Shown: positions 22,256-41,569 of the stretch, one piece after another | Position numbering within the stretch: the stretch's first letter is position 1 | How the letters are laid out: each line of letters starts with the position of its first letter | IMG/VR virus record: IMGVR_UViG_3300031993_000032 | From: a virus | Lineage: Duplodnaviria; Heunggongvirae; Uroviricota; Caudoviricetes | Length of the DNA: 41,569 nt | Direction: 5' to 3' (one strand) | Translations under genes and position numbers: made by a program | Notes under the pieces: generated by a model | What the model was told of the DNA's origin: nothing | The model's input: only the letters and a program-made list of their open reading frames with translations | Database searches by the model: none

Positions 22256-22328
22256 TGATAATCCTTTTGTTGAAGGGGACGCCAAATGCATACGAGACTA
22301 GGGCAGTCCCGTATGCATTCGATTCAGT

Positions 22329-24005
22329 CTAGGCTACGTTGTTCAAGTAGGTCAGCGAAGCGTTGATCGGACTGGTGCGGTTATATGCGGCTTGGATATC
22401 ATCCATACTGAAGCCGAAGCCGTACACGCTAGAAGTCTTCAAGCGGAGCAGAGTTTCCATGGCATCATGTTCCACATTGTCCAAGAACGTCTGCGAGTGT
22501 GCCGCACTCGTATCGTTGACAATGTGAGCGATGGAGCTACGGAACGCATCTACTTCCTTGTAGTACGCTGCCATACGAGCAATCAGCACACCCAGGTTAA
22601 ACTTGTTGCCTTCCACGTTACGAACCCATACCTTGCGGTTGATATCGACAAGGCAACGGAGCCAGTAGGGGACGACACCAAGTTGACGATGACGGCATTC
22701 GCTCATGGTCTCAATCAGCCAACTAGGTACGTTCAGCGAATTGGTAGTAGTACCATTCACGTAATCGTGGAAAATACTGATTGAGTTGATGGTGCAAGAG
22801 AACACAACGCGAGTGAACAGACGGATTTCATCGTCATTGATGTACACGCCATGCAGACGCTCGTCGGCATCGTTGTTGCTGAGAATCATGTCGCCGTTGC
22901 CGAGCAAGCGTTCGGCACCGCCATGTCCGAGAATGGTCACGGAGTCGGTAGCCGAGCTGACCTTGAACGCAATGCGGCACGGAAGGTTGGCCTTGAGATC
23001 GCCAGTCACCACCTTCACAGAAGGTCTCTGCGTGGCAAGCACCAAGTGGATGCCGACTGCACGGCTCTTCTGTGCGAGTCTCTGCACTATGGAAGTGAGT
23101 TCTGCACCAGCAGTCATCATCAAGTCGGCGAATTCGTCAACCACGCAGACTACGTAGCGCATCTTTTCAACGCAGTCCACACCGATCGGCTGAGTATTCA
23201 CCCATTCGTTGTAGGACTTGATGTTACGATGGCCGTACTTGGTGAGAATAGCATAGCGGCGTTCCATTTCGGTGACGAGCCAACGGAGACCATCGAGTGA
23301 TTCGTTAGGGTCAACGAGGATCTTGCCGTTGATGCAGTTCGGCATCTTCTGGTAATCGTTCAGTTCCACGCCCTTGGGGTCAACGAGCATCAATTCAAAG
23401 TCATTCAAGGACACGTTGCGGAGCAACGAGCAGAGAAGGGAGTTGATGCAGACGGACTTTCCAGAGCCGGTCTGACCAGCAATCAGAAGGTGCGGTGCCT
23501 TCGCCAAGTCGATGGCACGTGCTTCGCCATTGACGGTAACACCGAGTTCAAGCGGAAGCGCCATACCTTCGGTATTGGCCGTATGCACATTACCGAGACG
23601 GACGACCTTGCGTTCCTTTGCGGGAATATCCAAGGCGAGAACACCCTTTTCGGATACGGAAGTGAAGGATGCGCACTTGACCTGGAGCTGCATAGCGATA
23701 TCGTCAGCAAGAGCTTCAATAGTCTTGATGCGGACACCATGCGGCAACTTCAAGTTGACACGAGTAACCACGGGACCGCATTCGATGCTATGCACTTGAA
23801 CGCCAGTCACGCCGAAACTAGAGATAGCGCTAATCACACGGTCACCGAGATCTTCGTCGGCAGAGCCAGAGAGATCGGTGGTCACGTTGAAATAGGTGCT
23901 GTTCTTTATAAATCCGATATTGCTAGTGTCAATGCCATAGAAGGCCACCGAATGGGTGGCGGTCATGTCAAGACCAAAGCCGTTTTCGAAAGTTTCGTTA
24001 GTCAT
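22329..24005 (-). CDS. FtsK/SpoIIIE-family DNA translocase motor lacking TM and gamma domains
   Basis: Alpha domain (GPVVTR...GVRIKTI), Walker A AGQTGSGKS, LVDPK, Walker B VVDEFADLM, ATQRPS, GAERLLGNGDM; GGAGG RBS before MTNETF. Confidence 0.9.
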   Translation of the reverse strand: MTNETFENGFGLDMTATHSVAFYGIDTSNIGFIKNSTYFNVTTDLSGSADEDLGDRVISAISSFGVTGVQVHSIECGPVVTRVNLKLPHGVRIKTIEALADDIAMQLQVKCASFTSVSEKGVLALDIPAKERKVVRLGNVHTANTEGMALPLELGVTVNGEARAIDLAKAPHLLIAGQTGSGKSVCINSLLCSLLRNVSLNDFELMLVDPKGVELNDYQKMPNCINGKILVDPNESLDGLRWLVTEMERRYAILTKYGHRNIKSYNEWVNTQPIGVDCVEKMRYVVCVVDEFADLMMTAGAELTSIVQRLAQKSRAVGIHLVLATQRPSVKVVTGDLKANLPCRIAFKVSSATDSVTILGHGGAERLLGNGDMILSNNDADERLHGVYINDDEIRLFTRVVFSCTINSISIFHDYVNGTTTNSLNVPSWLIETMSECRHRQLGVVPYWLRCLVDINRKVWVRNVEGNKFNLGVLIARMAAYYKEVDAFRSSIAHIVNDTSAAHSQTFLDNVEHDAMETLLRLKTSSVYGFGFSMDDIQAAYNRTSPINASLTYLNNVA

Positions 24006-24025
24006 GTTCAAATCCTCCAAGAGTT

Positions 24026-24054
24026 AATATAACTCTTATTTTTGAATTTGTCAA
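24026..24054 (-). promoter_or_regulatory. sigma70-type promoter for the FtsK-like gene
   Basis: TTGACA-N17-TATATT. Confidence 0.75.
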
Positions 24055-24106
24055 GTGGTTTGCGCAAATTTTATAGAAAAATATCGCAGCCCCGTGCAGA
24101 ATCGCA

Positions 24107-24661
24107 TCAGTCTCCGAAGGTGATGACCTGGTTCTTCTTGTCCTTGCGCATGTTGATTCTGCGGTAGCGGATCTGTTCTTGAACCTTGGGGAACAAGTCG
24201 AAGTCGCCCTCGAACGTCTGCGTGAGCAATTCTTCTGGGTAGTACAGCTTGAAATTGTCAACAGAATCAAAGTACACGCCACGGAAGAAGTTCAGTCCGT
24301 CGTAGGCGGCTAGGATGTCCGGACAGTTCTGTTGATTGTACACTGAGAACATGAAGTCCTTGCCGACTGTATAATCGTAGTAGCAGTCCAGACCCTTCTT
24401 GGACCTGGCGATGCGTACCAGATGGTACACGTTCACAGCCGGACACGTGCCGTCCTTGTACGGCTCGGAGAAGATGCTCCCCACGTAGGGGCACGTAACC
24501 TTTCCGTCCACAATCACTGGCATGGTAGTGTAGCGGTCGCCGGTATTCCAGTTGCCGGAGCGCATGTAGATGCGTACTTCCTTGCGGTCAATGACATTGT
24601 CGAACGCGACCGCCATGGCGGACACGGCGAACACGAGCATGATTATTAACAGGTTCTTCAT
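24107..24661 (-). CDS. Secreted hypothetical protein
   Basis: Signal peptide MKNLLIIMLVFAVSAMA; AAGGAG RBS. Confidence 0.8.
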   Translation of the reverse strand: MKNLLIIMLVFAVSAMAVAFDNVIDRKEVRIYMRSGNWNTGDRYTTMPVIVDGKVTCPYVGSIFSEPYKDGTCPAVNVYHLVRIARSKKGLDCYYDYTVGKDFMFSVYNQQNCPDILAAYDGLNFFRGVYFDSVDNFKLYYPEELLTQTFEGDFDLFPKVQEQIRYRRINMRKDKKNQVITFGD

Positions 24662-24720
24662 AGTAATTCTCCTTTGTGGATGCTATCAAAATGGTCCGCG
24701 AGGGCAGTCCCGCAGACCAT

Positions 24721-24864
24721 TCAGCCAGTCTTGCCGAATCTGATTCGGTCTCTCTCAAGTCGTTCCTTGGTGATCTTCCGGAACAACAGTACGGCATGTT
24801 CCTGTACAGTCAGTCCAGACCATCCGACATCAAGTCCTTTCTTGTAGACTTCGTTGTAGTTCAT
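24721..24864 (-). CDS. 47-aa hypothetical protein
   Basis: ATGA overlap start MNYNEVYKK; last codons lie inside the repeat element. Confidence 0.6.
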   Translation of the reverse strand: MNYNEVYKKGLDVGWSGLTVQEHAVLLFRKITKERLERDRIRFGKTG

Positions 24865-25067
24865 CGGCGTTTCGGGAATTCGCTGTCCAGACCATGCGCC
24901 CACGTACCGTCTATGACGGATAGACCGACCTTCACGCCAAGATGAATCTGGCTAATCTTGTCACGGTCAACCGGACGGCCTTGGACGTATTCGTCAGCAA
25001 GTTCCCTCATCTGGTCAGCGGCCTTGTACAGCATGACCCTTACATCATGTTTCGTATAAATAGCCAT
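24861..25067 (-). CDS. Hypothetical protein
   Basis: AAGGAG RBS. Confidence 0.75.
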   Translation of the reverse strand: MAIYTKHDVRVMLYKAADQMRELADEYVQGRPVDRDKISQIHLGVKVGLSVIDGTWAHGLDSEFPKRR

Positions 25068-25261
25068 AAAAACTCCTTAGTTGAATCTGCGGTGTGCATT
25101 TTGAATGAAACGAAGGGGCAGTCCCGTGCTAGACGGAACCAGTCCCTGCGTATATCTTGTCTTCGGTAGGACAGAACACTTCTTCGCTGTTGCAATCCCC
25201 ACGTAGGTGGGTTGTATATTTTTTTGGTGTCCGTCTTAACTTGGGTAGTAGTCGATGATTT

Positions 25262-25696
25262 TTACTCATTCGGCGCGAGAATCACCTTGAAGAACTTCTG
25301 GTGAACACGCATGAGTTTGTTGTACATACGGTCGCCTTCGTACTTAGCCATGCTATACTTGAGCACGATAGCTGCGGCGAATATCGGATCGTTGTTACTA
25401 GTCGCATAGTGCAAGTAGACGCCATTTTGAACAAGCGTGAGAACACCAACATACTTGTGAGTCTTTCTCACTTCGAGCCAGTTACCGAATCCGTCGGCAG
25501 GGCGCTTCTTGTTCCATCCTTCGTCAAACTCTTTCTTAGTTAGTACACGAAAGTCAGACACGGCTCTGCTATGACGTAGAGACTTGTTGCAAGCGAAATT
25601 GGTGTGGTCGAACTTGGTCTGCATTTCTTGCTTCTTTTGGATATTCAGATCCTTGTTCCATTCGGTAAGATGGCGTTCAAATTCATTGGAAGTCAT
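25262..25696 (-). CDS. Hypothetical protein
   Basis: AAGGAG RBS. Confidence 0.75.
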   Translation of the reverse strand: MTSNEFERHLTEWNKDLNIQKKQEMQTKFDHTNFACNKSLRHSRAVSDFRVLTKKEFDEGWNKKRPADGFGNWLEVRKTHKYVGVLTLVQNGVYLHYATSNNDPIFAAAIVLKYSMAKYEGDRMYNKLMRVHQKFFKVILAPNE

Positions 25697-25720
25697 ATGT
25701 GTCTCCTTGCAAAGTATTGA

Positions 25721-26416
25721 TTATAATTCCACGTTATATACGTCACCAGTGTCGTTAGCTACGACACGAGCGAAATTCGGGAGAAATCCGTCTCCGTTAC
25801 GGAAATCAGTGATCGAACGCATGACACGTGCGGCCTCGAACATCACGCATGCTCCGTAATTGTCCATTATATCACGTACATGATTAATCCTGTACTCCAC
25901 GGTGGATGCCAAGACCTTTCCATTGCTGTCCATCTTATGGAAGCTCACAACGAAGTTGTCGTTGCTTACCAGATGGAATAAGTGTTCCAAAACTTCACTG
26001 AACCGGACAACCAGTCCAGACCATCCACCCAGGCTGACATCACCGTTATTATGGGGAACCTCAATCTTCACCGGAATATGGTAGTTGGTGAACGTGAAGT
26101 ACAGTTCCTTGTCACGGCTACAGTGCGAGAACTGAACGTCCGTGTCATCGCCAACGAACTCGTCGGACATCGACTTAGCGAGGGCCTCGGCCTTCTTCGC
26201 CACGGTCTTCTTGAGCCATCCATATCCGCTGCTCGTCTCGTAGCAGCTATTGGACATGTAGATGGTCACTCGACCGATCCTACGGTTCACTGAATAGGCC
26301 ATACGGCCAGTACCTACATCTGCATGGTACTTCTTGTAAAAATCGGACTCTAAAACCAGCTTCTCAAGCCGAGCTATTAGTTTTTCCTCTGTCGGCGTAA
26401 TCGTCTCATAATTCAC
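25721..26416 (-). CDS. Hypothetical protein
   Basis: AAAGGAG RBS before GTG at 26416. Confidence 0.75.
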   Translation of the reverse strand: MNYETITPTEEKLIARLEKLVLESDFYKKYHADVGTGRMAYSVNRRIGRVTIYMSNSCYETSSGYGWLKKTVAKKAEALAKSMSDEFVGDDTDVQFSHCSRDKELYFTFTNYHIPVKIEVPHNNGDVSLGGWSGLVVRFSEVLEHLFHLVSNDNFVVSFHKMDSNGKVLASTVEYRINHVRDIMDNYGACVMFEAARVMRSITDFRNGDGFLPNFARVVANDTGDVYNVEL

Positions 26417-26487
26417 GGTAAATCTCCTTTGTATGTGCAATTTTCATATAATGACGAGGCAGTCCCGTACACGGGACCGCCAGTCCG

Positions 26488-26655
26488 TCACTTGAACGTC
26501 TTCTTGGCCAGGTGCGGCTTCCCATCGTCTCCGATCACCGGCCACACGACTTGCTTGCCCTTCGTCACGAAGTGGCAGAAGATGTCCTTCTTGTCTACGC
26601 CCTGTTGTACGAGGGATTCGATGAATTCGTTTGCTTGTGTAGTGTAATCAGCCAT
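26488..26655 (-). CDS. 55-aa hypothetical protein not in the ORF track
   Basis: AAAAGGAG RBS; MADYTTQANEFIESL...HLAKKTFK; stop 3 nt from repeat element. Confidence 0.75.
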   Translation of the reverse strand: MADYTTQANEFIESLVQQGVDKKDIFCHFVTKGKQVVWPVIGDDGKPHLAKKTFK

Positions 26656-26680
26656 AATGAGTCTCCTTTTGTTTGACTAG

Positions 26681-27205
26681 TTACCAGTTTCTTGTAGGTT
26701 CGGTTTCTTCGATGCTTGCAGTTCCTGCGTCATATGCGAGACCATACTTGGACGCATCAACGTCTGTATATCCATTGTCTTCCATATGTTCCTTGGCCGT
26801 CTTGAACAAGGACTCGACTTGTTCATCGGTCACGTCGGACACCAAAATCACATCAACCGGAATACGGTTCCTATATACTTCCTCACGTGCGTAGATGCCT
26901 AGCTGCTGTGCAGCACCAACAATTGCCGAACGGATGCTAGAAATACTGTTGATTGCGTATTGCGGTGCGGGAGCGCCGACATACACGTACTTTATGACCT
27001 TTTCCGGCTGTACGAGGATATGGAGTTCCTTCTTGTTCGTGTCACCGTCATCATTAATGACCACATAGTCTCGTGCGATGTCATGGTCGAAGTCCACCGA
27101 CTGCTCGGCAATTTCAGTGGAATCCTCAAATCGAGTTCCCTCTTCGATTACGAGCACGTCGTAGTTATCGACTCCGATTTCGTCTATTACGTCCTGTATT
27201 GTCAT
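26681..27205 (-). CDS. Acidic hypothetical protein
   Basis: AAGGAG RBS. Confidence 0.8.
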   Translation of the reverse strand: MTIQDVIDEIGVDNYDVLVIEEGTRFEDSTEIAEQSVDFDHDIARDYVVINDDGDTNKKELHILVQPEKVIKYVYVGAPAPQYAINSISSIRSAIVGAAQQLGIYAREEVYRNRIPVDVILVSDVTDEQVESLFKTAKEHMEDNGYTDVDASKYGLAYDAGTASIEETEPTRNW

Positions 27206-27226
27206 GATTAAAACTCCTTTTTAATA

Positions 27227-27255
27227 AATATAACTTTTAAATTAAGTTTTGTCAA
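27227..27255 (-). promoter_or_regulatory. sigma70-type promoter
   Basis: TTGACA-N17-TATATT. Confidence 0.75.
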
Positions 27256-27272
27256 TACTTTTTTACTAAAAA

Positions 27273-27761
27273 TTATTTTCTTGCCTTCTGGCTTGCGGCC
27301 AAGTTAGCGTTCATCACCATGTTGTTCAGTTCGCTCTCGGCGGAAAACATCGTCAGCATGTTCTCGAACAAGTCAATAACCTTGTGAGCAAGACCACGGC
27401 GATCGATGTGCCACAACGCGTCGGCGGGTAGCTGTCCGTCAGCATGGATGCTACGGCTGTCATACATGCGGTAGTTCCACCAGATGGTACCGCTGTCGCC
27501 ACTATACAGACGGATTTCGCTGCCCATCCCCCAAAGGCACAGCTCCTCGTAGACGCCCTTCTTCATAAGCAAGCCCAATCCCTTGCTTGCATAGGAGAAA
27601 TTCCAGAACGGACTCTCTCCCCACTTCTCTACGAACGCCTCAAGACGCTCACGGAGACCTCGGTTGATGTCCACGTCGCCGTAATAGCATGATGCATTGT
27701 CGTGGATGAACATCGTCACCGCATCGTTGCGCTTCTGCATTTCCATGTCGATCGTATTCAT
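27273..27761 (-). CDS. Hypothetical protein
   Basis: GAGGA RBS. Confidence 0.8.
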   Translation of the reverse strand: MNTIDMEMQKRNDAVTMFIHDNASCYYGDVDINRGLRERLEAFVEKWGESPFWNFSYASKGLGLLMKKGVYEELCLWGMGSEIRLYSGDSGTIWWNYRMYDSRSIHADGQLPADALWHIDRRGLAHKVIDLFENMLTMFSAESELNNMVMNANLAASQKARK

Positions 27762-27770
27762 TGGTTCCTC

Positions 27771-28103
27771 CTAGTATTCCTTGATGTCGTAGCCACACAG
27801 AACGTTCATGGCATCCTCGATGCCCTGGTCGATACGTCCGCATGCCTCGGCGACCTCACGAAGGATGTCTTCTGCTTGAGGCTCACGATGGTCAAACTGG
27901 TTCAAGAATGAGCGTTCACAGAGCACTCCCACGTCCGAAGGGTCACGGCATTCGTTCGTCAGCACGAAGTAGCCTTCTTCCGGATGCACCGTTGCCGAAA
28001 CATGTTCGTAGTTGCTAGTGTAGGTCAGCACTCCGTCGGATTCATGATCCCACACAATGCCTTCGGATTCTAGCTTCTTTAGTAATTCGTCTGTGAATTC
28101 CAT
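27771..28103 (-). CDS. Acidic hypothetical protein
   Basis: AAGGAG RBS. Confidence 0.8.
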   Translation of the reverse strand: MEFTDELLKKLESEGIVWDHESDGVLTYTSNYEHVSATVHPEEGYFVLTNECRDPSDVGVLCERSFLNQFDHREPQAEDILREVAEACGRIDQGIEDAMNVLCGYDIKEY

Positions 28104-28205
28104 GTCGATTCTCCTTGTTTTGGTTGTGGTTGATATAAAATGGTAGGGCAGTCCCGCCGTCGGCGGAACCAGTCCTTTGTTGATATACTGTGAATAACTT
28201 GTTGA

Positions 28206-28577
28206 TTACTTGTTCGGAAGTTTCGCGTCCAGTAGACGCTTCATTTCTGCAATCGACTTGGCAGTAATATTCGAGCCTTCAATCGCCCAGAAGTCAGTCG
28301 ATCCGATTCGGGTCAGATTGCCGTTGTGACGGCGAACGATCTCGATACGAACCTTATCTTCCTTCGGATAGAAGTCGATCTCGTAATCGTAGGTCACGTC
28401 GTCGTTCTCGAATATGAGACCGTGGATGAACACTTCTCCGTCGTCATTGGAGTCACAGCTCGGAGAGCCGAACTTCATCCCCTTAAAGGCAGGGAGCAAG
28501 TAAGACTGGATTTCCTTCATGAGCGTCTGGTCGAAGCACTTGACTGCGGACAAAAATTTTATTTCTCTCTGTTTCAT
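28206..28577 (-). CDS. Hypothetical protein, paralog of 36351-36722
   Basis: EIKF...YLLPAF..MKFGSP...GEVFIHG...RRHNGNLTRI...FWAI shared pattern. Confidence 0.8.
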   Translation of the reverse strand: MKQREIKFLSAVKCFDQTLMKEIQSYLLPAFKGMKFGSPSCDSNDDGEVFIHGLIFENDDVTYDYEIDFYPKEDKVRIEIVRRHNGNLTRIGSTDFWAIEGSNITAKSIAEMKRLLDAKLPNK

Positions 28578-28579
28578 GG

Positions 28580-29158
28580 TTAGATCTCCTGTGCTTTAAT
28601 GATTTTGTCGATTAACGGCTTTGCCTTTTTGAGTACAGCTCTCGCTTCGTCCTCACGTTCCTTGGCGGCACCAAGCATTTCTTTGATATCCGCATCGAAA
28701 GCGTCCTGGGCATCCTTGATCGCAGTCAGCGGCGAGAAATAGACTACATAGTCCGAGCTAGATTCGATCTTTACACCTTCAGTTTCCGGCACGTCATCGT
28801 CGTCTGCTCCGTTGAACAAGGTAAACTTGCCTTCCTTGGACACCTTGCGCCATTCAATTTCACGAGTGCGATCGTTCCAGAGAAGGATTGAAGCCGGATA
28901 CTCTTCGGTAGCCTTCGGACGTAACGTGATAAGCTTCTGTGCGGCCTTCTTGAGATTGGCGTCATTCGTCAAGTTGATGAACACGGCCTTGTCCATGTTG
29001 TAGCGGCCTTCCCTGTAGATCTCGCCGAAGGCGCTGTTTTTTTCGGTCTTGCTGTGTTCCACGAAGCGACGGTCAGTCACGCTGTAGATATGGAAATACG
29101 GAAGTCCGGTCATGAAGCTTAATACCGGAATGAGCTTTGCCTTGGAAGATATTAACAT
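28580..29158 (-). CDS. Hypothetical protein
   Basis: AAAAGGAG RBS. Confidence 0.8.
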   Translation of the reverse strand: MLISSKAKLIPVLSFMTGLPYFHIYSVTDRRFVEHSKTEKNSAFGEIYREGRYNMDKAVFINLTNDANLKKAAQKLITLRPKATEEYPASILLWNDRTREIEWRKVSKEGKFTLFNGADDDDVPETEGVKIESSSDYVVYFSPLTAIKDAQDAFDADIKEMLGAAKEREDEARAVLKKAKPLIDKIIKAQEI

Positions 29159-29235
29159 GATTGAACTCCTTTTGATTAGGTTGTGCCCCTTGTATAAGGG
29201 AATAAGGCAGTCCCGTGGACGGGACCGCCAGTCCG

Positions 29236-29994
29236 CTAGAACTTGGTGATCAGTTCCTTCGGCTTCTTAAGGAACTGAATGGACTCGGTGTCACCTCGGT
29301 CGGTAGCCGCCTTGATAGCCGCCTTGATGGCCTGGTCTCTCTGTTCGGCCTTCCAGTAAATCTTGCTAGAAGAATTGCATCGGCGTCCGTAACTGATGAA
29401 GAATCCAGTACCGCCGTGGTTACAGCCCAGGCCGAACGTGGTGTACGTGTACAGAGGTTCTTCCGTCTGTTCCCACAGAACGCCCTTGAATACCACGAAC
29501 TGCTTTACGAGCTTCTTGACTTCGGCAAGTCTTTTCGTGTAGTCGTCTCCGACCACGATGGACTTTTCCAAGTCGAACTGCGGATCGTCCTTCGGCTGTC
29601 CGACAAAGCAGAATGCGGAACGGTTCTGGAACCAGTCAACCTCGTTGGCAACGTGTTCCTTGGGGTTCACGAACGAACGTGCGATTACGGAGCCGTAGCC
29701 GTGACGGACTGGCTTGTAGAGCTTGTTCTTGTAACGGCGGATAGTCTCCGTGAACCACATGCCCCTGCCGCCGTCGCCGTGATGGCAGAGTTCCCAGGCT
29801 TCCTCGTTGTCACGCACCTTCGGCAATACGGTCTGGTAGTCACGCACCTTGTATGCGACTGGGAAATCCCTTTCGTCGAGCACGTCCTTCACGTAGACTG
29901 CATAGTCAATAGAAAGCACTCGGTCACGAACCTTCGTGCAGCGCACGTTCGGATAGAAATACTGTTTGTACTTGAATGTAACTATTACGTCCAT
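29236..29994 (-). CDS. Hypothetical protein
   Basis: AAAAGGAG RBS before MDVIVTF. Confidence 0.8.
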   Translation of the reverse strand: MDVIVTFKYKQYFYPNVRCTKVRDRVLSIDYAVYVKDVLDERDFPVAYKVRDYQTVLPKVRDNEEAWELCHHGDGGRGMWFTETIRRYKNKLYKPVRHGYGSVIARSFVNPKEHVANEVDWFQNRSAFCFVGQPKDDPQFDLEKSIVVGDDYTKRLAEVKKLVKQFVVFKGVLWEQTEEPLYTYTTFGLGCNHGGTGFFISYGRRCNSSSKIYWKAEQRDQAIKAAIKAATDRGDTESIQFLKKPKELITKF

Positions 29995-30063
29995 GGTTAA
30001 TCTCCTTTTGGTTGTGTCCTTGGTATAAGCAGACAAGGCAGTCCCGCAGACGGATCCGCCAGT

Positions 30064-30267
30064 CTACTTGTCGAGATCCTTCGCTATTCCGAAATAGATG
30101 ATGAACGACGGCACTAAGATCTGCACAAGAATCAGCACAATGCCGACAAAGACATCGAATGCGACCTTCTTGTCCAGAGTGTCCATGTACGGAATGAGGA
30201 TGAAAAAGCTGATGGCTAGGCATGCGGAAGCCGCCGCCAGAGATACGAATTTCTTGACAACCTTCAT
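30064..30267 (-). CDS. Small two-TM membrane protein
   Basis: AAGGAG RBS; two hydrophobic helices. Confidence 0.75.
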   Translation of the reverse strand: MKVVKKFVSLAAASACLAISFFILIPYMDTLDKKVAFDVFVGIVLILVQILVPSFIIYFGIAKDLDK

Positions 30268-30276
30268 AATTACTCC

Positions 30277-30504
30277 TTATCCGTATAGTGCTTCGATACA
30301 CTCGTCCAACGAGTCACCACCGCCGACATATGCCCCTTTACCGCAGTCAAAGATACTCCAATGGTCTTCCTGGCGAATCAGCTTGATTAAGGGGTCTGGT
30401 AGCTCGACGATCCGTCCGGATGTCGATTCGTGGACTTTACTGGGGTCAAATTCCACCTTCTGCGCCTTCAGCGCATCTATTACGGTCTGTTCGACTTGTG
30501 TCAT
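30277..30504 (-). CDS. Hypothetical protein
   Basis: AAAAGGAG RBS. Confidence 0.75.
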   Translation of the reverse strand: MTQVEQTVIDALKAQKVEFDPSKVHESTSGRIVELPDPLIKLIRQEDHWSIFDCGKGAYVGGGDSLDECIEALYG

Positions 30505-30530
30505 ACGTAACTCCTTTTAAAGAAAGAAAT

Positions 30531-30581
30531 GCCCCACAGACTTGACAAACGAAAAACTTACTGAAACCAAGTCTATGGGGC
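30531..30581 (-). terminator. 14-bp stem, 23-nt loop, followed by U-rich run (terminator/processing site)
   Basis: GCCCCATAGACTTG...CAAGTCTGTGGGGC-ATTTCTTTCTTT on minus strand, one U-G pair. Confidence 0.55.
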
Positions 30582-30595
30582 ACCCACAGGAAAAT

Positions 30596-32353: not shown

Positions 32354-32374
32354 GGTAAAACTCCTTTTGCTATA

Positions 32375-33165: not shown

Positions 33166-33633
33166 CTAGCCGCCAGTCTTCCCCAAGAGTCCGTCAATCA
33201 GCCGCAAGTTGTCCTCTGCGCTCGACAGACAGTCGAAGTCGTGCGGCAATGCGTACAGAATCTGGCCGTCCTCGGCATTCTCCTCGGCATATCCGCATGA
33301 GTCGCTACGCATCCCACTCACCACCGAATCCGTAACGCCTTCGGCAATGTCACGGATGGCACCGCCAGAAGGCGACCATCCCTTCGGAACCCACGAGAGG
33401 TTCACGTATTCACGCTTCTCGCACTTCCAGTAGCGAAGTACAGCCCTTTCCGTCTCCGTCTTCACCTTCTTGAAGATTCTGTACGTGCCGTCATGCAGTC
33501 GGACGATGTAGTAGGCCCTTATCTTGAAATCGTCCGGTATGGCCACGCCGTCCACCAGGAAGGTGTACTCCACGCCGCAAGTCACCATGTTCGTGCAATG
33601 TCTCGGATCGCTCCTCATAAGAAATTCTCCCAT
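33166..33633 (-). CDS. Hypothetical protein
   Basis: Typical codons; ends GKTGG inside the element; start 33633 or 33618. Confidence 0.75.
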   Translation of the reverse strand: MGEFLMRSDPRHCTNMVTCGVEYTFLVDGVAIPDDFKIRAYYIVRLHDGTYRIFKKVKTETERAVLRYWKCEKREYVNLSWVPKGWSPSGGAIRDIAEGVTDSVVSGMRSDSCGYAEENAEDGQILYALPHDFDCLSSAEDNLRLIDGLLGKTGG

Positions 33634-33635
33634 TG

Positions 33636-33797
33636 TTAAAAATTATTTTCACAAGACCATCCCGCCATGCGGCTAGGATTCTCCTCGGTCAGCTTCACCC
33701 AGTCCACCGAAGAAAGCTTCTTCAGCGCACTCATGAACCGCTTCCTACTCTTGGTCTTGCACAGACGTAAAGTCTGCCGACCGTGAGCCTCGCCCAC
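33636..33797 (-). CDS. Possible 53-aa basic protein with atypical start
   Basis: Open frame with typical codons (GEAHGRQTLRLCKTKSRKRF...), but the first GTG is 18 nt from AAGGAG. Confidence 0.4.
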   Translation of the reverse strand: MGEAHGRQTLRLCKTKSRKRFMSALKKLSSVDWVKLTEENPSRMAGWSCENNF

Positions 33798-33895
33798 GTA
33801 GTAGACCGGACCCGACTCCTTGGTTAAAGGTTGTTAGTGTTTCCGTACCCATACATATACGCTAGGTGCAGTCCCGCCCACAGTACAATCAGTCC

Positions 33896-34261
33896 CTACT
33901 CGAACGTGACATCATCAAGGCAGACTCTTTCCCTAGTGTCCACCAAGTAGTGACTCTGGTCATATCGGTTAGTCAAGCTGTCATAGCCCTCGACTAGCCA
34001 CCTAGCGCACAGACCCTCATAGTATTTAGCCAACGAATCTCTGATATGCTCGTTCATGTATTCTTCTATACTATGGTTAGCCGCCCAGTTACCGCACACA
34101 TCCTCATAGTACAACTTCTTTCCGTAGCATATTCTGCTAGGCGCACTTACCCCATCGTCGCTACCGCACCCAGTAAATACTCCACAGCAGAACAGACAGA
34201 ACAGTACAACGAGTACCGTACCTACAACCGATTCCACGATAGTCTTTGTTTCATTATTCAT
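33896..34261 (-). CDS. Putative lipoprotein
   Basis: Hydrophobic leader ending VFTG-C-GSDD (lipobox-like); AAAGGAG RBS. Confidence 0.65.
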   Translation of the reverse strand: MNNETKTIVESVVGTVLVVLFCLFCCGVFTGCGSDDGVSAPSRICYGKKLYYEDVCGNWAANHSIEEYMNEHIRDSLAKYYEGLCARWLVEGYDSLTNRYDQSHYLVDTRERVCLDDVTFE

Positions 34262-34299
34262 AGTTTCAATTACTCCTTTGGAATGTTTTTACCCCATAT

Positions 34300-34914
34300 A
34301 TGCACAGCGGACAGTCCCGCACATAGGTCGGCCAGTCCCAGACTGTCCCCACAGTCCCCAACGGTCGCCCAACGTGGCAAAACGTGGGAAATAGTGGGAC
34401 ATTGTGGATATGTTGACAAAATGTTGATAGAGTGTGATTATAGTGGGAATAGGTATAAAAAATTTTTCCTTGTGTCGTACCTTGGGAACGAGTCGGAACG
34501 CAGACAGAACTGGTAGGCCGTTTGGGGCCTGGCTTGTTCTGAAAATTCCGGACTGGGGGGAAAGGGGCGGTTTCTGTATTAAATAGGCGCACAACGATCG
34601 GTCTGGGGTCTCGCGTGTGTGCCCTTTTCTTTCCCCTTCGGAATCCATGTGGCGAGATGTGCGGTGAAGTTAGCCCAGAGTAAGAAAGTTAGCGAATTTT
34701 GAAACATTCCCTAGATATTGTTTGAAGTGGAGACAAAATCCCAACATAGTGGAAAAGTGTCGAAAATGTTGATAAGGTGTTGATAAGTGTTAATTTTAGT
34801 TTACATAATCAAGGTTATCTCGCCGTGCTCAAATGAGCATTATAAAATGTATGGAAATTATAATAAAAATAAACTATATTTACATATAGAAATAAACCGA
34901 AAACGAGGAATGCT
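34300..34914. other. Non-coding strand-switch region with DnaA-box-like/iteron-like repeats (candidate origin or terminus)
   Basis: TGTTGATAA 34767 and 34778; TGTGGATAT 34403, TGTTGACAA 34411, TGTTGATAG 34422; repeated GTGG(G/A)A; AT-rich end. Confidence 0.4.
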
Positions 34915-35655
34915 ATGTCAACAATAGATTACTATACCGATGATGCCGAACGTACTTATCTAATAAGCCACGTATACCAGACTCCATACTTCGCCCCTGG
35001 TGAATTATCCAAGATTGAAAACTATGCCCAAGCGTTGGCAAATAATTTCGTTGGTTGGGTCATTCACCACAGATTAGAACTGAACCCAGATGGTAGCGTT
35101 AACAAACGTCGTGATGAATTAATACTATCAAACCAGTATTACTATCGTCCGGCAAATGAATTGATCTTTTTAACCAGTATCGAACATGGCAAACTACATG
35201 GGCACTCTATAAAGCCGAACCCCACTATAGTGTCACACGAAACGAGGAATAAACAGAGTAACGCCAAGTTGGTCGCCAATAACACCGAGGAACGTTACCG
35301 AGTAGTTTCTGCGTTGGTGGAGTCTGGCGAACTGTTATGCATGTCTGACTATCAGTTCTACCGTCGGTATTGCCAACGTAACGGCATAGCGTTTACTGGG
35401 GCAAAGGTTGACAAGAGTCATACGGTTAGTCGAGTCGATGTGCCGAAGGTGAATGTAACTAAAAATAAACAAAGTCGAACTGAACGTACTGAAGCTCGAT
35501 ATAAAGATGTCATGGAACGCTTAAATAATGGTGATGTTCTACCGATGAAGGAATTTTCGTTTCTCCGTCGGTATTGTGATAGGCGTCTCATAGACGTTCC
35601 GTCGATCATTATCGTAGACGACGGATTCAAATTAAAAAATATATCTGGCGTGTGA
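34915..35655 (+). CDS. HNH endonuclease with duplicated C-terminal module
   Basis: WVIHHRLE...YYRPANELIFLTSIEHGKLH; repeats TEERY...YQFYRRYC and TEARY...FSFLRRYC; lone plus-strand gene in the array. Confidence 0.7.
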   Translation: MSTIDYYTDDAERTYLISHVYQTPYFAPGELSKIENYAQALANNFVGWVIHHRLELNPDGSVNKRRDELILSNQYYYRPANELIFLTSIEHGKLHGHSIKPNPTIVSHETRNKQSNAKLVANNTEERYRVVSALVESGELLCMSDYQFYRRYCQRNGIAFTGAKVDKSHTVSRVDVPKVNVTKNKQSRTERTEARYKDVMERLNNGDVLPMKEFSFLRRYCDRRLIDVPSIIIVDDGFKLKNISGV

Positions 35656-35718
35656 TCCCATTATTTGGGAAATTTCCGGTCCCGTCGGAAACGTGCCAGT
35701 CAGTCGGCGCTGGAGGCC

Positions 35719-35751
35719 AAAAAAAGCCCCAGGTCCCGAAGGATCTGGAGC
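35719..35751 (-). terminator. Intrinsic terminator (cUUCGg loop)
   Basis: GCTCCAGATCC-TTCG-GGACCTGGGGC-TTTTTTT. Confidence 0.8.
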
Positions 35752-35814
35752 TTTTCCAACCAAGGAGAAAAAAGACTATATAACTGGAGTATGTTCTAAA
35801 CCGATCAACCGCCC

Positions 35815-36345
35815 TTAAAACAATTTATGTAGCTTGAGTTCGTTTTCCGCGATTTGGTCATGGATTTTATTGATTTTGTCCAAGTACTGCTGTTCTCTGT
35901 AGTTAGCAATGACTTTATGGATGAACCCTCTAGGGTCATCCAGGTCGGCCATGGCGCTATCTTTTGTGGACGCTTCCTCGAAGAGGACAGTATCACCTTC
36001 GTCAGCCAGAATCCGGCACATGAGAGCCGGGTTAGGGTCATTCTTGTCAGTATCGACGAATAGTCTTAGGTTTATGATAAGGTCCGGAAGATTAGCGATC
36101 CCTACTATATCGGATTCGAAAATTAATTCGGAGACATTATCGGACACGAACGGAGCGATAGGCGTAGGTCCATCCCCTAGGGCGAGTTTGAGTTCAGTAC
36201 CGAATCTATCCCCATAGGGACACTGTTGGTGCAGTCTGGCAATGAAAAGATCATTATCCAGCGGTTTACCGTTATCCTCTGGGAGTTGTCTGGAATTGAT
36301 CCAAGGGATAACGAGGTTATCTATAAAGGATTTGAGTCTGGACAT
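35815..36345 (-). CDS. Hypothetical protein
   Basis: AAGGAG RBS. Confidence 0.75.
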   Translation of the reverse strand: MSRLKSFIDNLVIPWINSRQLPEDNGKPLDNDLFIARLHQQCPYGDRFGTELKLALGDGPTPIAPFVSDNVSELIFESDIVGIANLPDLIINLRLFVDTDKNDPNPALMCRILADEGDTVLFEEASTKDSAMADLDDPRGFIHKVIANYREQQYLDKINKIHDQIAENELKLHKLF

Positions 36346-36350
36346 GATAC

Positions 36351-36722
36351 TTACTCCTTACTGATAAGGTTGTCGAGGATATGTTTTTGCGCTAGGATAA
36401 CGAGTTTAGACGGGTTATCGGAAGCTATGACCCACAGTCCGTTATCATTGATTCTGGTAATGGTTCCGTTTACGGATCTCATGATATTGATTTTGGTCAC
36501 GTTATCGGCCATCAGGAACGATATTGTATATGAGAACATGACGTTATTCTGGTCATAAACATAACCGAGAATGACGATATCACCGTTTTTGCTTGATTCG
36601 ACCTTAGGAGAACTGAACGACATGTTATCGAACGCTGGGGAGAGATAAGTTTTTACTTGGTTCAAGACCATCTGGTTATAATCGTTGACCTTTTTCATGA
36701 AACGGATTTCGTTTTTATTCAT
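36351..36722 (-). CDS. Hypothetical protein, paralog of 28206-28577
   Basis: EIRF...YLSPAF..MSFSSP...GDIVILG...RSVNGTITRI...LWVI. Confidence 0.8.
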   Translation of the reverse strand: MNKNEIRFMKKVNDYNQMVLNQVKTYLSPAFDNMSFSSPKVESSKNGDIVILGYVYDQNNVMFSYTISFLMADNVTKINIMRSVNGTITRINDNGLWVIASDNPSKLVILAQKHILDNLISKE

Positions 36723-36807
36723 ATAAGCCTCTGGTTGTTAAGTCTTTGTAGGTTATAAGGGACCGAGTCAGTCCCGTTGGAAATGAGTCATTATGGAACT
36801 GTGGCAC

Positions 36808-36840
36808 AAAAAGGCCCCAGTACCCGAAGGTACTGGAGCT
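36808..36840 (-). terminator. Intrinsic terminator (cUUCGg loop), related to 35719-35751
   Basis: GCTCCAGTACC-TTCG-GGTACTGGGGC-CTTTTT. Confidence 0.8.
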
Positions 36841-36863
36841 TTCCAACCACGGAGCATGAAAAC

Positions 36864-37193
36864 TTAAAAGTGTGGAATGTCGGTAATAAGGGTAAGGCTG
36901 TTGACGTACTGCCAAGCCTGGGTCAGAGTACGTTCGAGCGCATTCTTGTTACTGGATAGGTAGGCGGCGTTGAACGGAATGGTTCGGAACAGATCCGGAT
37001 GATGGTTGAAGTGAGCGACCACTCGACCCGGTTCAGCCTTGACAACCACGGATCCATGGTCGAACTCGATCATACCTTCCTCGACTGCGTTATTGAACAG
37101 TTGACGGAAGATGATTTTTTGGTTATCGATACGGTTTTTCTGTTGTTGAGCCTGGTGATGTGCATACCAAGCGATAGGATCCGCGAAGTTCAT
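36864..37193 (-). CDS. Hypothetical protein
   Basis: AAGGAG RBS. Confidence 0.75.
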   Translation of the reverse strand: MNFADPIAWYAHHQAQQQKNRIDNQKIIFRQLFNNAVEEGMIEFDHGSVVVKAEPGRVVAHFNHHPDLFRTIPFNAAYLSSNKNALERTLTQAWQYVNSLTLITDIPHF

Positions 37194-37217
37194 GTAAAAG
37201 CTCCTTATGGTAACAGT

Positions 37218-37424
37218 TTATGGGGTTACTCCACTGGTTCCAGTGACTTTTGTGTCTACGGAAACGGCACGGTTTGCCAGATCCGGATATTGGCCTTTGA
37301 ATGTATCGAGAGCCAGGGTTCTGGCCATAGACTTTGCCAAGTCGATCGACGGAGCTTCGACATTATTGATATGTACATTTACTTTGACGGTGATTTCGAC
37401 GAGAGTGGATAATACTTTAGCCAT
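37218..37424 (-). CDS. Hypothetical protein
   Basis: CAACCAAGGAG leader. Confidence 0.75.
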   Translation of the reverse strand: MAKVLSTLVEITVKVNVHINNVEAPSIDLAKSMARTLALDTFKGQYPDLANRAVSVDTKVTGTSGVTP

Positions 37425-37514
37425 GATGGATCTCCTTGGTTGTGTGTGCCCTTAGTATAGGTGATGCATGCAGTCCCGTGGGGAACGTGCCAGTCCCTGG
37501 TCGGCGGAGGCCAG

Positions 37515-37547
37515 AAAAAAGCCGAGACGGAGATCATCCGTCCCGGC
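37515..37547 (-). terminator. Intrinsic terminator
   Basis: GCCGGGACGG-N7-CCGTCTCGGC-TTTTTT. Confidence 0.8.
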
Positions 37548-37557
37548 CAACCAGGGA

Positions 37558-38006
37558 GCTACAGAAAAGTGTAAGATCTTCTCGTGACTGACTCGTCTGG
37601 GCGAGCCGTCTCCCAGTCACTCGATACTCGGCGTTGGACATCTATCGCCACATCGCTACCGAGCATGAAGATTTTTTTTCGTGGTCTGACCAAGTCGAAC
37701 ACGAACCGTTATCTGAAACCTACCTAAATCTACCAAGAGATAGACCTATGTGATTTCCTACCTTGCTCGTTGCCGAGTAGGCCGTAACGGCACTTAATCA
37801 ACCATATCTACGCGATATTCCTAATATGCATCAAGCAATATGGCTGACTTGCCTAGTCCTACTCCATTGATGGAGAGCCTTAACACGGTCGGCATATCAA
37901 ACTAGACATGAGTAAATATAGTTCAATCGTTATCTATTTTCAATAGCAGATTTAAGTATATTTAGTTAAATTTTGTTAACATTTGTGACTGCAGTCGGTT
38001 ACCCAT
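37558..38006 (-). pseudogene. Promoter-to-terminator unit with no intact ORF (decayed gene or ncRNA)
   Basis: RBS plus 14-aa ORF MGNRLQSQMLTKFN (37962-38006); distal protein-like frames joined by a frameshift at an A8 run (37672-37679) end at TAG next to the terminator module. Confidence 0.4.
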
Positions 38007-38078
38007 GATTAAATCTCCTTGATTGGTTGTGCCGAATGAATAAGCTGGCGAGGCAGTCCCGCCAGCTGGCGGACAGTC

Positions 38079-38633
38079 CTACAGTTCCGTCTCGATAGTC
38101 CACTTCGTCCAGACGGGCCAGGTGTTCGGCGACTCCGCGCACTTGGTCTGGAGCAGCATTTTCGCCGTGGGGAACATGATACCGTCAGACTCTTCCTTGT
38201 ATGCCTCGGCGAGCCTCTTGAAGTCGTCGATGACAAACTGGATCGCCTCGCCGACGGTGGCGCAAATCTTGACAAAGGAACGGAGATCGCCGTTCTGGTT
38301 GTCATACTGTGCGCCGTGGACAGCAACGAAGTTGCATTCGTGTTCCCAGACGGAGCAGTCGATGTAGTCGCCGCCAGTGGTTTCAAAGGACACGCTTTCG
38401 GTCGTCTCTCTGATGGCAGCCAGCAGTGCTTCGGTGTCGTCCAGATCGCCCTCGAACATCTTGCCGTCGAAGTAGACGTTTTCCAGACGGCTTCTGAAGT
38501 ACTCGTCTTCCTCGATCTTCTTACGTGCCCAAGCGTGAAGCTCGTTGATGGCTTCCTTCTCGACTGGATACATATCGACGGATTCGGCGGTTCTGTCGTC
38601 CTGATGGAAAATAATCAAGCTAAACTGTTTCAT
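38079..38633 (-). CDS. Acidic hypothetical protein
   Basis: Follows element 38689; stop abuts element 38054. Confidence 0.8.
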   Translation of the reverse strand: MKQFSLIIFHQDDRTAESVDMYPVEKEAINELHAWARKKIEEDEYFRSRLENVYFDGKMFEGDLDDTEALLAAIRETTESVSFETTGGDYIDCSVWEHECNFVAVHGAQYDNQNGDLRSFVKICATVGEAIQFVIDDFKRLAEAYKEESDGIMFPTAKMLLQTKCAESPNTWPVWTKWTIETEL

Positions 38634-38714
38634 TTCTGATCTTCTTGATTGGTTTGGTTGGTTGTGTAGAATGAATAAGACGGCGGAGCAGTCCCGCCGT
38701 CCGGCGGCCAGTTC

Positions 38715-39074
38715 CTAGAGCTTCTCGATCTTGTCTGAAACGGTCATCAGCGCCTTGTAGTCTGTGCCGCCGTCGAGATCGGCGATATCGTTGATGTACT
38801 TGCTGAAGAAGTATTTCAGCCAATCGGCTTCACGCTGGGTGAGCTTAAGGGTCTTTGTCTTGAGTTGGTCTGCCTTATCCAGCTCGATAAAATTCTCGTC
38901 GAAGAACTTTCGGCTCACTTTAGTTGCGTCTAGGTACATTCCGGATATAAGCACTTTTTCCGGGTCATTAAATACCCAGAGACAGGTATATCGGTTGCCC
39001 TTCTTAATCTTGACACCGCCCAGACCTTTGGTATGGGTAGCGACGTAAATTCTAGATACTACAGGTATTGGCAT
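38715..39074 (-). CDS. Hypothetical protein
   Basis: CAACCAAGGAG leader before MPIPVV. Confidence 0.8.
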   Translation of the reverse strand: MPIPVVSRIYVATHTKGLGGVKIKKGNRYTCLWVFNDPEKVLISGMYLDATKVSRKFFDENFIELDKADQLKTKTLKLTQREADWLKYFFSKYINDIADLDGGTDYKALMTVSDKIEKL

Positions 39075-39168
39075 GGTTGATCTCCTTGGTTGAGGTTTGT
39101 ATGGAATAAATATTATCTGAAAGCAGTCCCGTCGGTTCTTTACCAGTAGCCAGGTGCGGCTGGCAAAT

Positions 39169-39197
39169 AAAAACTGGGCGGAATTGCTTCCGCCCAG
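39169..39197 (-). terminator. Intrinsic terminator (GCAA tetraloop)
   Basis: CTGGGCGGAA-GCAA-TTCCGCCCAG-TTTTT, perfect 10-bp stem. Confidence 0.85.
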
Positions 39198-39222
39198 CAA
39201 CCAGGGAGTTAAAAATTATTTT

Positions 39223-40014
39223 TTAGTGGTCATGGCAAGCGATAACCTTGACCTTGCTGTCAATGCATAGTCTGCAGTTCTCGCAGTGCGACTTGGGATC
39301 GGGGTTGAGCTTGGCTTTGCCAGTTTTACCGACTACCAGGTAGGCAGGGCAGTAGCACTTGGTAGGCAAGCACATATCCACGCCGTCATCGAAGACGAAT
39401 GCCTTGACGTTCGGCAAGTGAGAATATTTTTTGTAGGCTTCGACGCCCACGTCGTGCCAGACCGAGAACAAGATCGTGAAGTTGGGCGGCACGTCGCCGT
39501 TTTCGAGGAATTTTCCCACGATATCGTACATTTTCGTGTACAGATAGAACTTGGTATCAGGGAAACGGATCGCAAGGCGGCACCACATGGCCATTTGGCG
39601 TTCGTTTTCGAGTTCGCCAGACTGGTTGATACGGGCGATCTTGACGTGGCGGCGTTCGATCTGGTTGGCCAGATCGGCTTCGACCTTCTTGAGTTCGTGA
39701 CGGAGACCCCAGGTGTTGATTGCCTGGGACTGGACGACTCCAGGGAAGCGGTAGGAAGCTCTGACGTAGCAGCTCTTCTTACAGGCGCTGCAGTTCTTGC
39801 AAGTGCCCTTGATACCTTCGAGTTCGTCGTTGAGACCTTCGTAGGTGTAGTCGCCGAGCAGCGTAGACCACGTGGCGATACGGCCTACCTTGATGTTGCC
39901 AGCGAGACTGAAGCCGTAGGTGTGAGCCTTGGGATCGAAGGTATAGCGTTCGATTCCGTTGGGCGTGACCGTCTTGGTGTCTTCGTGGAACAGTTTCTTA
40001 GATTCTTTAGCCAT
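39223..40014 (-). CDS. Gp88-like protein (radical-SAM-related Cys cluster)
   Basis: GNIKVG, GTCKNCSACKKSCY, RINQSGE, FYLYTK, terminal CENCRLC motifs. Confidence 0.7.
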   Translation of the reverse strand: MAKESKKLFHEDTKTVTPNGIERYTFDPKAHTYGFSLAGNIKVGRIATWSTLLGDYTYEGLNDELEGIKGTCKNCSACKKSCYVRASYRFPGVVQSQAINTWGLRHELKKVEADLANQIERRHVKIARINQSGELENERQMAMWCRLAIRFPDTKFYLYTKMYDIVGKFLENGDVPPNFTILFSVWHDVGVEAYKKYSHLPNVKAFVFDDGVDMCLPTKCYCPAYLVVGKTGKAKLNPDPKSHCENCRLCIDSKVKVIACHDH

Positions 40015-40100
40015 AATGTAGCTCCTTAGGTTGAATTGGCTTTGTGCTTAAATTATATCAGAAAGGGGCAGTCCCGGAGAACTGCCGCCAGTTTCCAGAA

Positions 40101-40646
40101 CTACTGAACCTTCATGCCAAGCTGTTTAGCAGCGGCAATCAAGCATCGCTTTTGCAATTCAGCATTGAATGTATTAAAGGCGGCCTTGATTTCCTTGACT
40201 GTATGTACTTCGACCTCATCTTTAACTTCGACATCATCAAAGTCGCTGGACACGTACAGTATACAGAGTTCGCATTTGGTCTCGCCAGAATCATGTCTGG
40301 TCAGACGAATTGTGAAATCATACCGGTTATATTCAGCGCTCAATTCGAGCTTGGTGTCATACAGCCCATGGAAAACTCGCTTCGTCAGATTATTGACGCA
40401 ATCGGCATACTCTTCAAACACCAGTAGATTCAATTGATCCACGCATGACTCGACAAAATTCAAGTCACGATCGGTATTGAACACGTCCGGCAATCTATAC
40501 GGTTCATCGAAATCCAGATCGCTTGGATTGATTTCAGACATCTTGTCCAGGAGTACCTGGAGGATCGGGTCGAACGGTTTGGCTACCGGCTTGACGGCGG
40601 CCTTCTTGGTAGTCTTCTTGGTGGATTTCTTGATAGTTGTTTTCAT
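40101..40646 (-). CDS. Hypothetical protein with Lys/Thr-rich basic N-terminus
   Basis: CAACCAAGGAG leader; MKTTIKKSTKKTTKKAAVKP. Confidence 0.8.
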   Translation of the reverse strand: MKTTIKKSTKKTTKKAAVKPVAKPFDPILQVLLDKMSEINPSDLDFDEPYRLPDVFNTDRDLNFVESCVDQLNLLVFEEYADCVNNLTKRVFHGLYDTKLELSAEYNRYDFTIRLTRHDSGETKCELCILYVSSDFDDVEVKDEVEVHTVKEIKAAFNTFNAELQKRCLIAAAKQLGMKVQ

Positions 40647-40722
40647 AAAAACTCCTTGGTTGATTGTATAGGGGAAATAACCCGGCTAGGCAGTCCCGCA
40701 GGGCTGCCGCCAGTTTCCAGAA

Positions 40723-41205
40723 CTACTGATAGAGACAGCTGTTTCTGTCAATGAGGGTCACCAGGTGTTCTCTGGAGAGAGGCTTCGTGAAGCTCATGAC
40801 TTCTGTGGCATTGAGTCCCTCGGAGTCGTCAACCGACAGCTTGCTGGGGATAGCCGTCAGCTCGTAGTCACCAGTGGTGTCAATCGCCAGCTTGTAGCCA
40901 GTCTCCTTGAGGGCGGCGAACAGCGGCTCGGCAGCCTTCTGGAGCTTCTCAATCACACTGCCATAGTTGACGCCGAGCAGTGCCTCTGCACGAGAGGTGA
41001 ACGGGCCGTTCACCTCGGACACGACCCAGTCGTCAGTGCGTACGGACGGACACAGCTTGTGTGCGTACTCAATTGCCAAGTTGTTGAACTCCTCAGAATG
41101 CGTGTCGTAGTCGGTCTCCACGCCTACCCAGATCTCAGGGCTAGCGACCTGTCCTGAAGGAACAACCTTGCTGGAACACAAAACAAAATACTTGGACTTT
41201 TTCAT
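40723..41205 (-). CDS. Hypothetical protein
   Basis: AACCAAGGAG leader. Confidence 0.8.
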   Translation of the reverse strand: MKKSKYFVLCSSKVVPSGQVASPEIWVGVETDYDTHSEEFNNLAIEYAHKLCPSVRTDDWVVSEVNGPFTSRAEALLGVNYGSVIEKLQKAAEPLFAALKETGYKLAIDTTGDYELTAIPSKLSVDDSEGLNATEVMSFTKPLSREHLVTLIDRNSCLYQ

Positions 41206-41287
41206 GATTAACTCCTTGGTTTGGGTGTATAGGGAAAATAACCCGGCAGGGCAGTCCCGCCGGGTATCGGCCAGTTCCTAGACTGTA

Positions 41288-41506
41288 TTAATCGCACTCC
41301 TTGACAAGTTCCTTGAGTTTCTTGCCAGCGGCTGCCATTCCGTCTTCGTCGTCTTCGGCGACGGCGTCGTCATAATCATTGAGCGCAGCCCTCACCTTCT
41401 GACGGAATTCTTTGTCCTTGGTAGCCTTGGCGTCGAGCTTCCAAGCATCGCCGTAATCAATTTCCCCAGTAAGCTGGGCTACGTCTTCGAGTCTGGATTC
41501 AAACAT
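41288..41506 (-). CDS. Small acidic hypothetical protein
   Basis: CAACCAAGGAG leader. Confidence 0.8.
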   Translation of the reverse strand: MFESRLEDVAQLTGEIDYGDAWKLDAKATKDKEFRQKVRAALNDYDDAVAEDDEDGMAAAGKKLKELVKECD

Positions 41507-41569
41507 TGTTAATCTCCTTGGTTGATTGTGTGTAACGGAAATAACCCGGTAGAGCAGTCCCGTGACTGG

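Follow-up and report, generated by a model that had tools for sequence, protein, structure and literature searches.

The closest described systems to the locus considered here are the promoter early stem-loops (PeSLs) of the T4-type phages RB49/phi1 and KVP40/nt-1, which are repeated intergenic units of terminator, promoter and Shine-Dalgarno (SD) sequence between the orphan genes of a hypervariable region, and within which exchange at various positions, often in the stretch from the -10 box to the SD sequence, brings genes in or removes them (PMC2839356, PMC4122927). Mini-circles in infected cells and in virions are a further mark of PeSLs. We analysed 41,569 nucleotides of a Caudoviricetes virus (IMG/VR record IMGVR_UViG_3300031993_000032; the whole stretch is referred to as the window), in which an array of small genes (19690..41569, minus strand) carries one element in each intergenic gap, with 21 exact and three degenerate cores. 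Similar to PeSLs, this element is a repeated intergenic unit between orphan genes in a hypervariable region, and the genes are shuffled by exchanges that fall inside it. Unlike PeSLs, which join a strong sigma70-like promoter to an adjacent stem-loop, the element has no -35 box and carries its stem-loop directly on the predicted promoter core. The stem-loop takes one of several registers and is confined to copies that lack a separate terminator, and 70+ copies are present in one block. The stem overlaps the core in about half of the copies, and a separate terminator lies upstream of 82 of 328. The element is PeSL-like in its working but not a PeSL by its promoter, the predicted terminator being nested on the promoter core. 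The hairpin is probably the intrinsic terminator of the upstream gene, overlaid on a promoter that does not follow the sigma70 consensus.

T4 middle promoters have a MotA box near -30, 12+/-1 bp before a -10 box that is an excellent match to sigma70 (PMC2988021). The invariant box of the element likewise replaces the -35 box near -30 and lies 11 bp before TAT, a likeness in geometry only that is counted from a predicted start site, whereas its core sequence differs from the MotA box, a second box lies 20-21 bp upstream, and the -7 position is weak, with T in only 138 of 342 copies; neither a MotA nor an AsiA equivalent was identified, no search having been aimed at them. As in an intrinsic (Rho-independent) terminator, a G+C-rich stem follows the stop codon on the sense strand in about half of the copies, and T is enriched past its end; this tail is imperfect, however, and would double as the -10/discriminator or the spacer of the next promoter.

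The repeated motif as a candidate promoter

On the sense (minus) strand the motif is rigid, GACTG-N12/13-CGGGRCTGC-N10-TAT-N9-YR, and is followed by an A/C-rich leader, an SD sequence and ATG, with one motif per gene. Its two GRCTG boxes, box A and that of the core, are 20-21 bp apart, TAT begins 10 bp past the core, and a pyrimidine-purine step (YR) lies 9 bp further on. AT was found at +20/21 from the core start in 22/22 window copies, though the search pattern did not demand it. A search of cultured phages with the window (megablast) gave no match, while a 348-kb IMG/VR contig (G001, 91% complete) matches a large share of the window at 68-93% identity. This relative gave hits to a terminase, a family-B-type polymerase and a tail sheath, carries two sigma70-family genes, and has AT at +20 in 71 of its 72 plus-strand cores; every motif hit in it, 70+ in number, is confined to one 66-kb block and one strand.

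Pattern scans of the relatives returned 674 copies, 342 of them non-redundant, and 328 non-redundant copies were used for context counts. The YR step is present at +30/31 in 292 of the 328, and an SD sequence with a start codon lies downstream in 304. Where a terminator precedes the copy (82 cases), an SD sequence and start codon follow in 75 and a sigma70-like site is nearby in only 14, which leaves the motif as the sole promoter candidate at these copies. TTGACA is not in the consensus of the 342-copy alignment, and sigma70-type promoters form a separate class in the same genomes. The motif is probably a promoter for host RNA polymerase in which a specificity factor, either an activator or an alternative sigma, would occupy positions from about -31 to -23, where a -35 box would otherwise stand. 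A search of Rfam gave no match at E<=1.

Near-consensus sigma70-type promoters (TTGACA-N17-TATATT) are interleaved with the array on the minus strand of the window, at 18852-18880, 24026-24054, 27227-27255 and 32375-32403. As well, hybrid copies were found in the relatives (G001 at 244450 and 247949; L076, L083), in which TTGACA just 5' of the core and TATATT 17 bp later overlay a sigma70-type promoter on the element.

Hairpins over the core and the terminators upstream

An earlier note on this DNA, made from the sequence alone, had proposed that most copies fold into a hairpin over the core, in freely differing registers and on the plus strand. All 12 of its hairpin strings are in place (the one at 41242-41263 ends one base short), and the folding was tested with box A, core and TAT held fixed and the remainder shuffled. 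Folding better than that of the shuffles was obtained on the sense strand of the window (mean z -1.98; p<0.05 in 12/22 copies, about half rather than most), against a mean z of -1.31 and just 5/22 copies on the plus strand where the folds had been placed, and -0.37 in coding controls; read on the minus strand, the bulged a/c pairs of the strings at 22287 and 24691 become G-U pairs. Among the 342 non-redundant copies of relatives, the sense strand gave a mean z of -1.50 versus -1.26 for the other strand (paired p 1.6e-5), with 37% at p<0.05. A strand-neutral stem finder located stems in 148 copies versus 34-54 in column shuffles. The excess folding is real, but it concerns about half of the copies; the hairpin is facultative.

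The registers do not vary freely, since four classes dominate the 148 stems: i+j = 12 (54 stems, core-centred), -1 (27) and -4 (11), in both of which an upstream arm pairs with the core, and 20 (14, downstream). Clear covariation across the family was found only for i+j = 12 (z 6.1), with two weaker peaks near 3.5; this register includes 13 distinct perfect arm pairs, which covary within the element and not across the gene, and orthologous copies mostly retain their register. In the stem after the ftsK-like gene, all 16 pairs are kept in orthologues, with two compensatory double changes and five G-U-consistent ones, in a comparison of three sequences only where the shuffle control was not significant. 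Mismatches in the stems, read on the sense strand, are G-T rather than A-C at 51:23 (consensus pairs left out), against 134:113 in column shuffles (p 0.03), which points to folding of the mRNA-like, non-template strand. Pairing between the two arms that flank one gene, as in terminal inverted repeats, was also considered and rejected, as their complementarity is no better than for other neighbours.

The occurrence of the hairpin depends on what lies upstream. Hairpins with z<-2 are found in 6% of the 82 copies behind a standalone hairpin-plus-U terminator and in 47% of the 246 others (p 9e-10), and copies adjacent to a stop codon have a mean z of -2.4 versus -0.9. The same is found in G001 alone (1/13 terminator-preceded versus 34/60 other copies, p 3e-5), and the Fibrobacter chromosomal copies, which are mostly terminator-preceded, have a hairpin in 1/21. 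In the window, four copies follow standalone terminators (35677, 36769, 37471, 39124), and their stems are weak or short. Because stem and standalone terminator behave as alternatives to each other and the motif is unchanged with either, it does not depend on the hairpin. These tests of the dissociation between hairpin and motif are new. They suggest that a terminator has evolved repeatedly atop a fixed promoter sequence, and the hundreds of natural variants provide paired cases with and without it. The elements of the window, with their hairpins, are as follows.

22282..22329 (minus): element after the ftsK-like gene, 16-19 bp hairpin (register 18) over core and TAT, z -6.05 on the sense strand
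24063..24112 (minus): degenerate element, hairpin absent, then the sigma70-type promoter 24026-24054
24681..24730 (minus): element, hairpin of 12-14 bp that spans the core and contains two G-U pairs, with a TTT tail
25095..25144 (minus): element, weak upstream-arm hairpin
26436..26485 (minus): element, upstream-arm hairpin 26458-26481 paired to the core, poor T tail, z -5.3
28125..28174 (minus): element, upstream-arm hairpin, register retained in orthologues
29184..29233 (minus): element, upstream-arm hairpin 29206-29229, five T in a 10-nt tail
30015..30064 (minus): element, upstream-arm hairpin, z -3.0
31500..31549 (minus): element, marginal hairpin
32426..32475 (minus): element without hairpin, then the sigma70-type promoter 32375-32403
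33129..33178 (minus): element, weak fold
33845..33894 (minus): element without hairpin
34288..34348 (minus): first element following a non-coding stretch, without an internal hairpin; additional partial core repeats lie upstream
35653..35741 (minus): standalone terminator 35727-35741, then a degenerate element with a weak hairpin
36745..36839 (minus): standalone terminator 36814-36839, then an element with a short stem only
37447..37548 (minus): standalone terminator 37520-37548, then an element without hairpin
38030..38079 (minus): element, core-centred (register 12) hairpin 38043-38067, T-rich tail
38665..38714 (minus): element, register-12 hairpin 38678-38702, T-rich tail; arms swapped yet paired in homologues
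39100..39198 (minus): standalone terminator 39173-39198, then an element without hairpin, likewise weak or absent in orthologues
40045..40094 (minus): element, upstream-arm hairpin 40067-40086, T-rich tail
40667..40716 (minus): element, upstream-arm hairpin, chimeric arms
41228..41277 (minus): element, register-12 hairpin 41241-41265, T-rich tail
41531..41569 (minus): element truncated by the window end

Several of the stems proposed earlier were revised accordingly. The strings at 38059 and 38694 exist, but the core-centred folds at 38043-38067 and 38678-38702 are better; the stem at 41555-41568 exists but is weak, with z -1.1, and is truncated where the window stops; and the long-loop stem at 34309-34348, though present, takes one arm from the sequence upstream of box A, gives no significant fold within the element and arises from the extra partial core repeats.

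The excess of T residues tracks the stem end. Register-12 stems have 5.2 of 8 T at +22..+29 versus 3.1, outside the shuffled region, while in upstream-arm stems the excess shifts to +10..+17 (3.6 of 8 versus 2.2). In the window, a plain terminator scan called four copies terminator-like. Selection on structure, which the earlier note had inferred, is supported. The note had seen no U-tracts, which it read on the wrong strand, and had thereby excluded intrinsic termination; its idea of a structure selected in RNA at 3' ends was of the right family, the mode probably being an intrinsic terminator on the sense strand.

We propose that, where the upstream stop codon abuts the element, the variable spacers would have become complementary either to one another or to the G+C-rich core. 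Polymerase arriving from the upstream unit would read through the next promoter, its RNA would fold over the core, and the transcript would be released within the T-rich tail, only a few nucleotides short of the next start site, while stems with a poor tail may instead pause polymerase or protect the 3' end. Each gene would then be a monocistronic unit that could be swapped by homologous exchange anywhere in the shared element.

Several points weigh against this proposal. No motif-reading factor was identified, the strand test is modest (p 0.03), and the copies are related rather than independent, which makes the p-values optimistic. The window alone has too few cases for the dissociation (0/2 versus 11/19, p 0.12), and the tail test for upstream-arm stems is partly circular, as the tail positions were among the shuffled ones. 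Moreover, the T tails are weaker than those of standalone terminators, and the ones at 26460 and 28149 are poor, so that some stems may only pause or protect. In the same vein, the stems might define or protect the 3' ends of read-through mRNA during nuclease processing, or act as pause sites, as the sense-strand fold directly after stop codons and the few T at several strong stems would allow. This explanation is unlikely, because T enrichment tracks the stem end and the stems vanish where a true terminator lies upstream, which makes the two interchangeable.

Two further observations concern the standalone terminators on the minus strand. An anti-leader, CTCCNTGGTT, complementary to the leader and SD sequence, stands just before each of them (window 39208, 37558, 36854, 35767) and could pair the 3' end of a transcript with its 5' end, shutting off translation of finished transcripts. 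As well, 37520-37943 holds a sigma70-type promoter and a strong terminator, separated by about 390 nt in which that strand has no open reading frame (ORF) of 60 codons; it is a candidate non-coding RNA or decayed gene and has no Rfam match.

Gene exchange and other readings of the element

Genes on the two sides of the element are widely recombined. Pairs of copies share only the upstream flank in 356 cases, only the downstream flank in 479 and both in 147, and of 104 upstream-gene clusters, 67 are followed by two or more different downstream genes. Estimated breakpoints are scattered, lying in the core in 2/79 and 4/100 events and mostly between TAT and the SD sequence, so that in an exchange the hairpin usually moves together with the gene upstream of it. 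This pattern matches homologous exchange, as for the PeSLs of T4-type phages.

A site-specific cassette system like that of integron attC sites, with the core as crossover point, would likewise give one site per gene, massive gene swapping and chimeric arms. It is nevertheless very unlikely, since so few breakpoints fall in the core, the arms around one gene are not complementary above neighbours, and the 91%-complete relative yielded neither a tyrosine integrase nor a resolvase; unlike attC, the element has no single crossover point or fixed bottom-strand fold, and no IntI-type recombinase was found there either.

The other DNA structure that had been suggested is a cruciform or single-stranded hairpin promoter for a virion polymerase. 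In phage N4, every promoter of this polymerase requires a template-strand hairpin centred at -11 (PMC4496689). The element resembles these in a conserved loop or core with arms that vary if paired, and its commonest class indeed has the invariant core capping a stem with freely covarying arms. In contrast to N4, however, the hairpin is optional, lies on the sense strand and is centred near -25 or elsewhere without a fixed register; the motif is invariant in stemless copies, array starts included, and the wobble bias is toward the non-template strand. In G001, a DxDGD-type motif was found in no large ORF, RNA polymerase beta gave no hit, and T7-type RNA polymerase gave none in a search that had no positive control, while five very large ORFs there are unassigned. 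A DNA-hairpin promoter is highly improbable, and the invariance of the motif without a hairpin, the register classes, the wobble, the scattered crossovers and the lack of integrase or resolvase hits in the relative speak against single-stranded or cruciform DNA.

Template switching, which perfects quasi-palindromes, is a known mutational process, and the hairpins could be its neutral by-product, seeded by a self-complementary consensus around the core, as the inverted consensus flanks and the several discrete registers would suggest; it is just as improbable, for it fails to predict the dependence on upstream terminator and stop codon, the moving T tails, the excess of G-T over A-C and the long-term compensatory conservation, and the conditional occurrence largely refutes it.

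Fibrobacter islands and neighbouring features

The window is a phage fragment that encodes FtsK-like, TnpB, transglycosylase and GP88 genes, and the phage is a jumbo phage of lytic type from an uncultured rumen clade, to which PeSL-type modular shuffling is here extended with a non-sigma70-consensus promoter. Near-copies are binned in one Fibrobacter metagenome-assembled genome, and Fibrobacter genomes show an enrichment of the motif; Fibrobacter is therefore the probable host.

The motif is present in 11 of 101 Fibrobacter genomes. Five of these have short arrays of two to five copies at an island edge, with ArdC, SpoVG and resolvase genes and genes shared with the phage array, and four of the five islands lie beside tRNA-Arg genes and have a pair of tyrosine integrases at the opposite end. 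The islands, which are candidate satellites, are L331 (G010:C2 23.0-26.2 kb), L333, L337, L340 and L342, one of them with a DUF5906 protein. A 14-bp motif, CCTTACGGCGWTTT, precedes the first element by 32-70 bp in both islands and phage relatives; in the 348 kb of G001 it occurs only twice, both times at the array start (232127, 232216; L015:12127-12230), and it is a candidate genome-end, packaging or nick signal. The sharing of both the promoter motif and the array-start motif with chromosomal islands is also new.

We tentatively suggest, while holding it doubtful, that the motif is a promoter class dedicated to the entry phase, recognised by a factor that the phage supplies, perhaps in the virion, and that works with host RNA polymerase; that the beginning of the array is the DNA end that enters first, with the 14-bp motif as its mark; and that the tRNA-Arg-linked islands are satellites that copied end motif and promoter to fire anti-restriction genes under the helper's factor. 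The alternative is a mobile-element entry regulon like that of pLS20-family plasmids, in which a repeated upstream sequence, EGeRS, defines an entry-gene regulon including ardC (PMC8708921). The element similarly stands ahead of a gene set including ardC, which is alike by description, with no sequence likeness expected; it differs in being common to a lytic-type jumbo phage and chromosomal islands. As Fibrobacter is culturable and cellulolytic, its islands offer a route to the motif-reading factor and possibly the first phage-satellite pair there.

A degenerate sigma-like Fibrobacter family was tried as reader of the motif and rejected, as just a few members have the motif upstream and the listed phage ORFs include no homologue, the hidden Markov model search having come back empty and without a positive control. 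Single copies lie 215-700 bp upstream of such genes in Fibrobacter chromosomes (L207, L197, L275, L278, L279), and their neighbours resemble the window gene 19230-19601 and the FtsK-like gene.

Finally, some features apart from the element were noted. The relative G001 has five ORFs of 1500-2150 aa without a PHROG match (L349:1220-7675, L350:1070-5740, L010:10377-15296, L351:1344-6362, L011:8238-12794). In the window, a TnpB/Cas12f-like gene (19974-21398, plus) is inserted against the array direction. A 246-aa orphan ORF (34915-35655, plus) lies on the opposite strand within the array, flanked by A+T-rich non-coding DNA in which a 37-bp repeat is present at 34399 and 34744.

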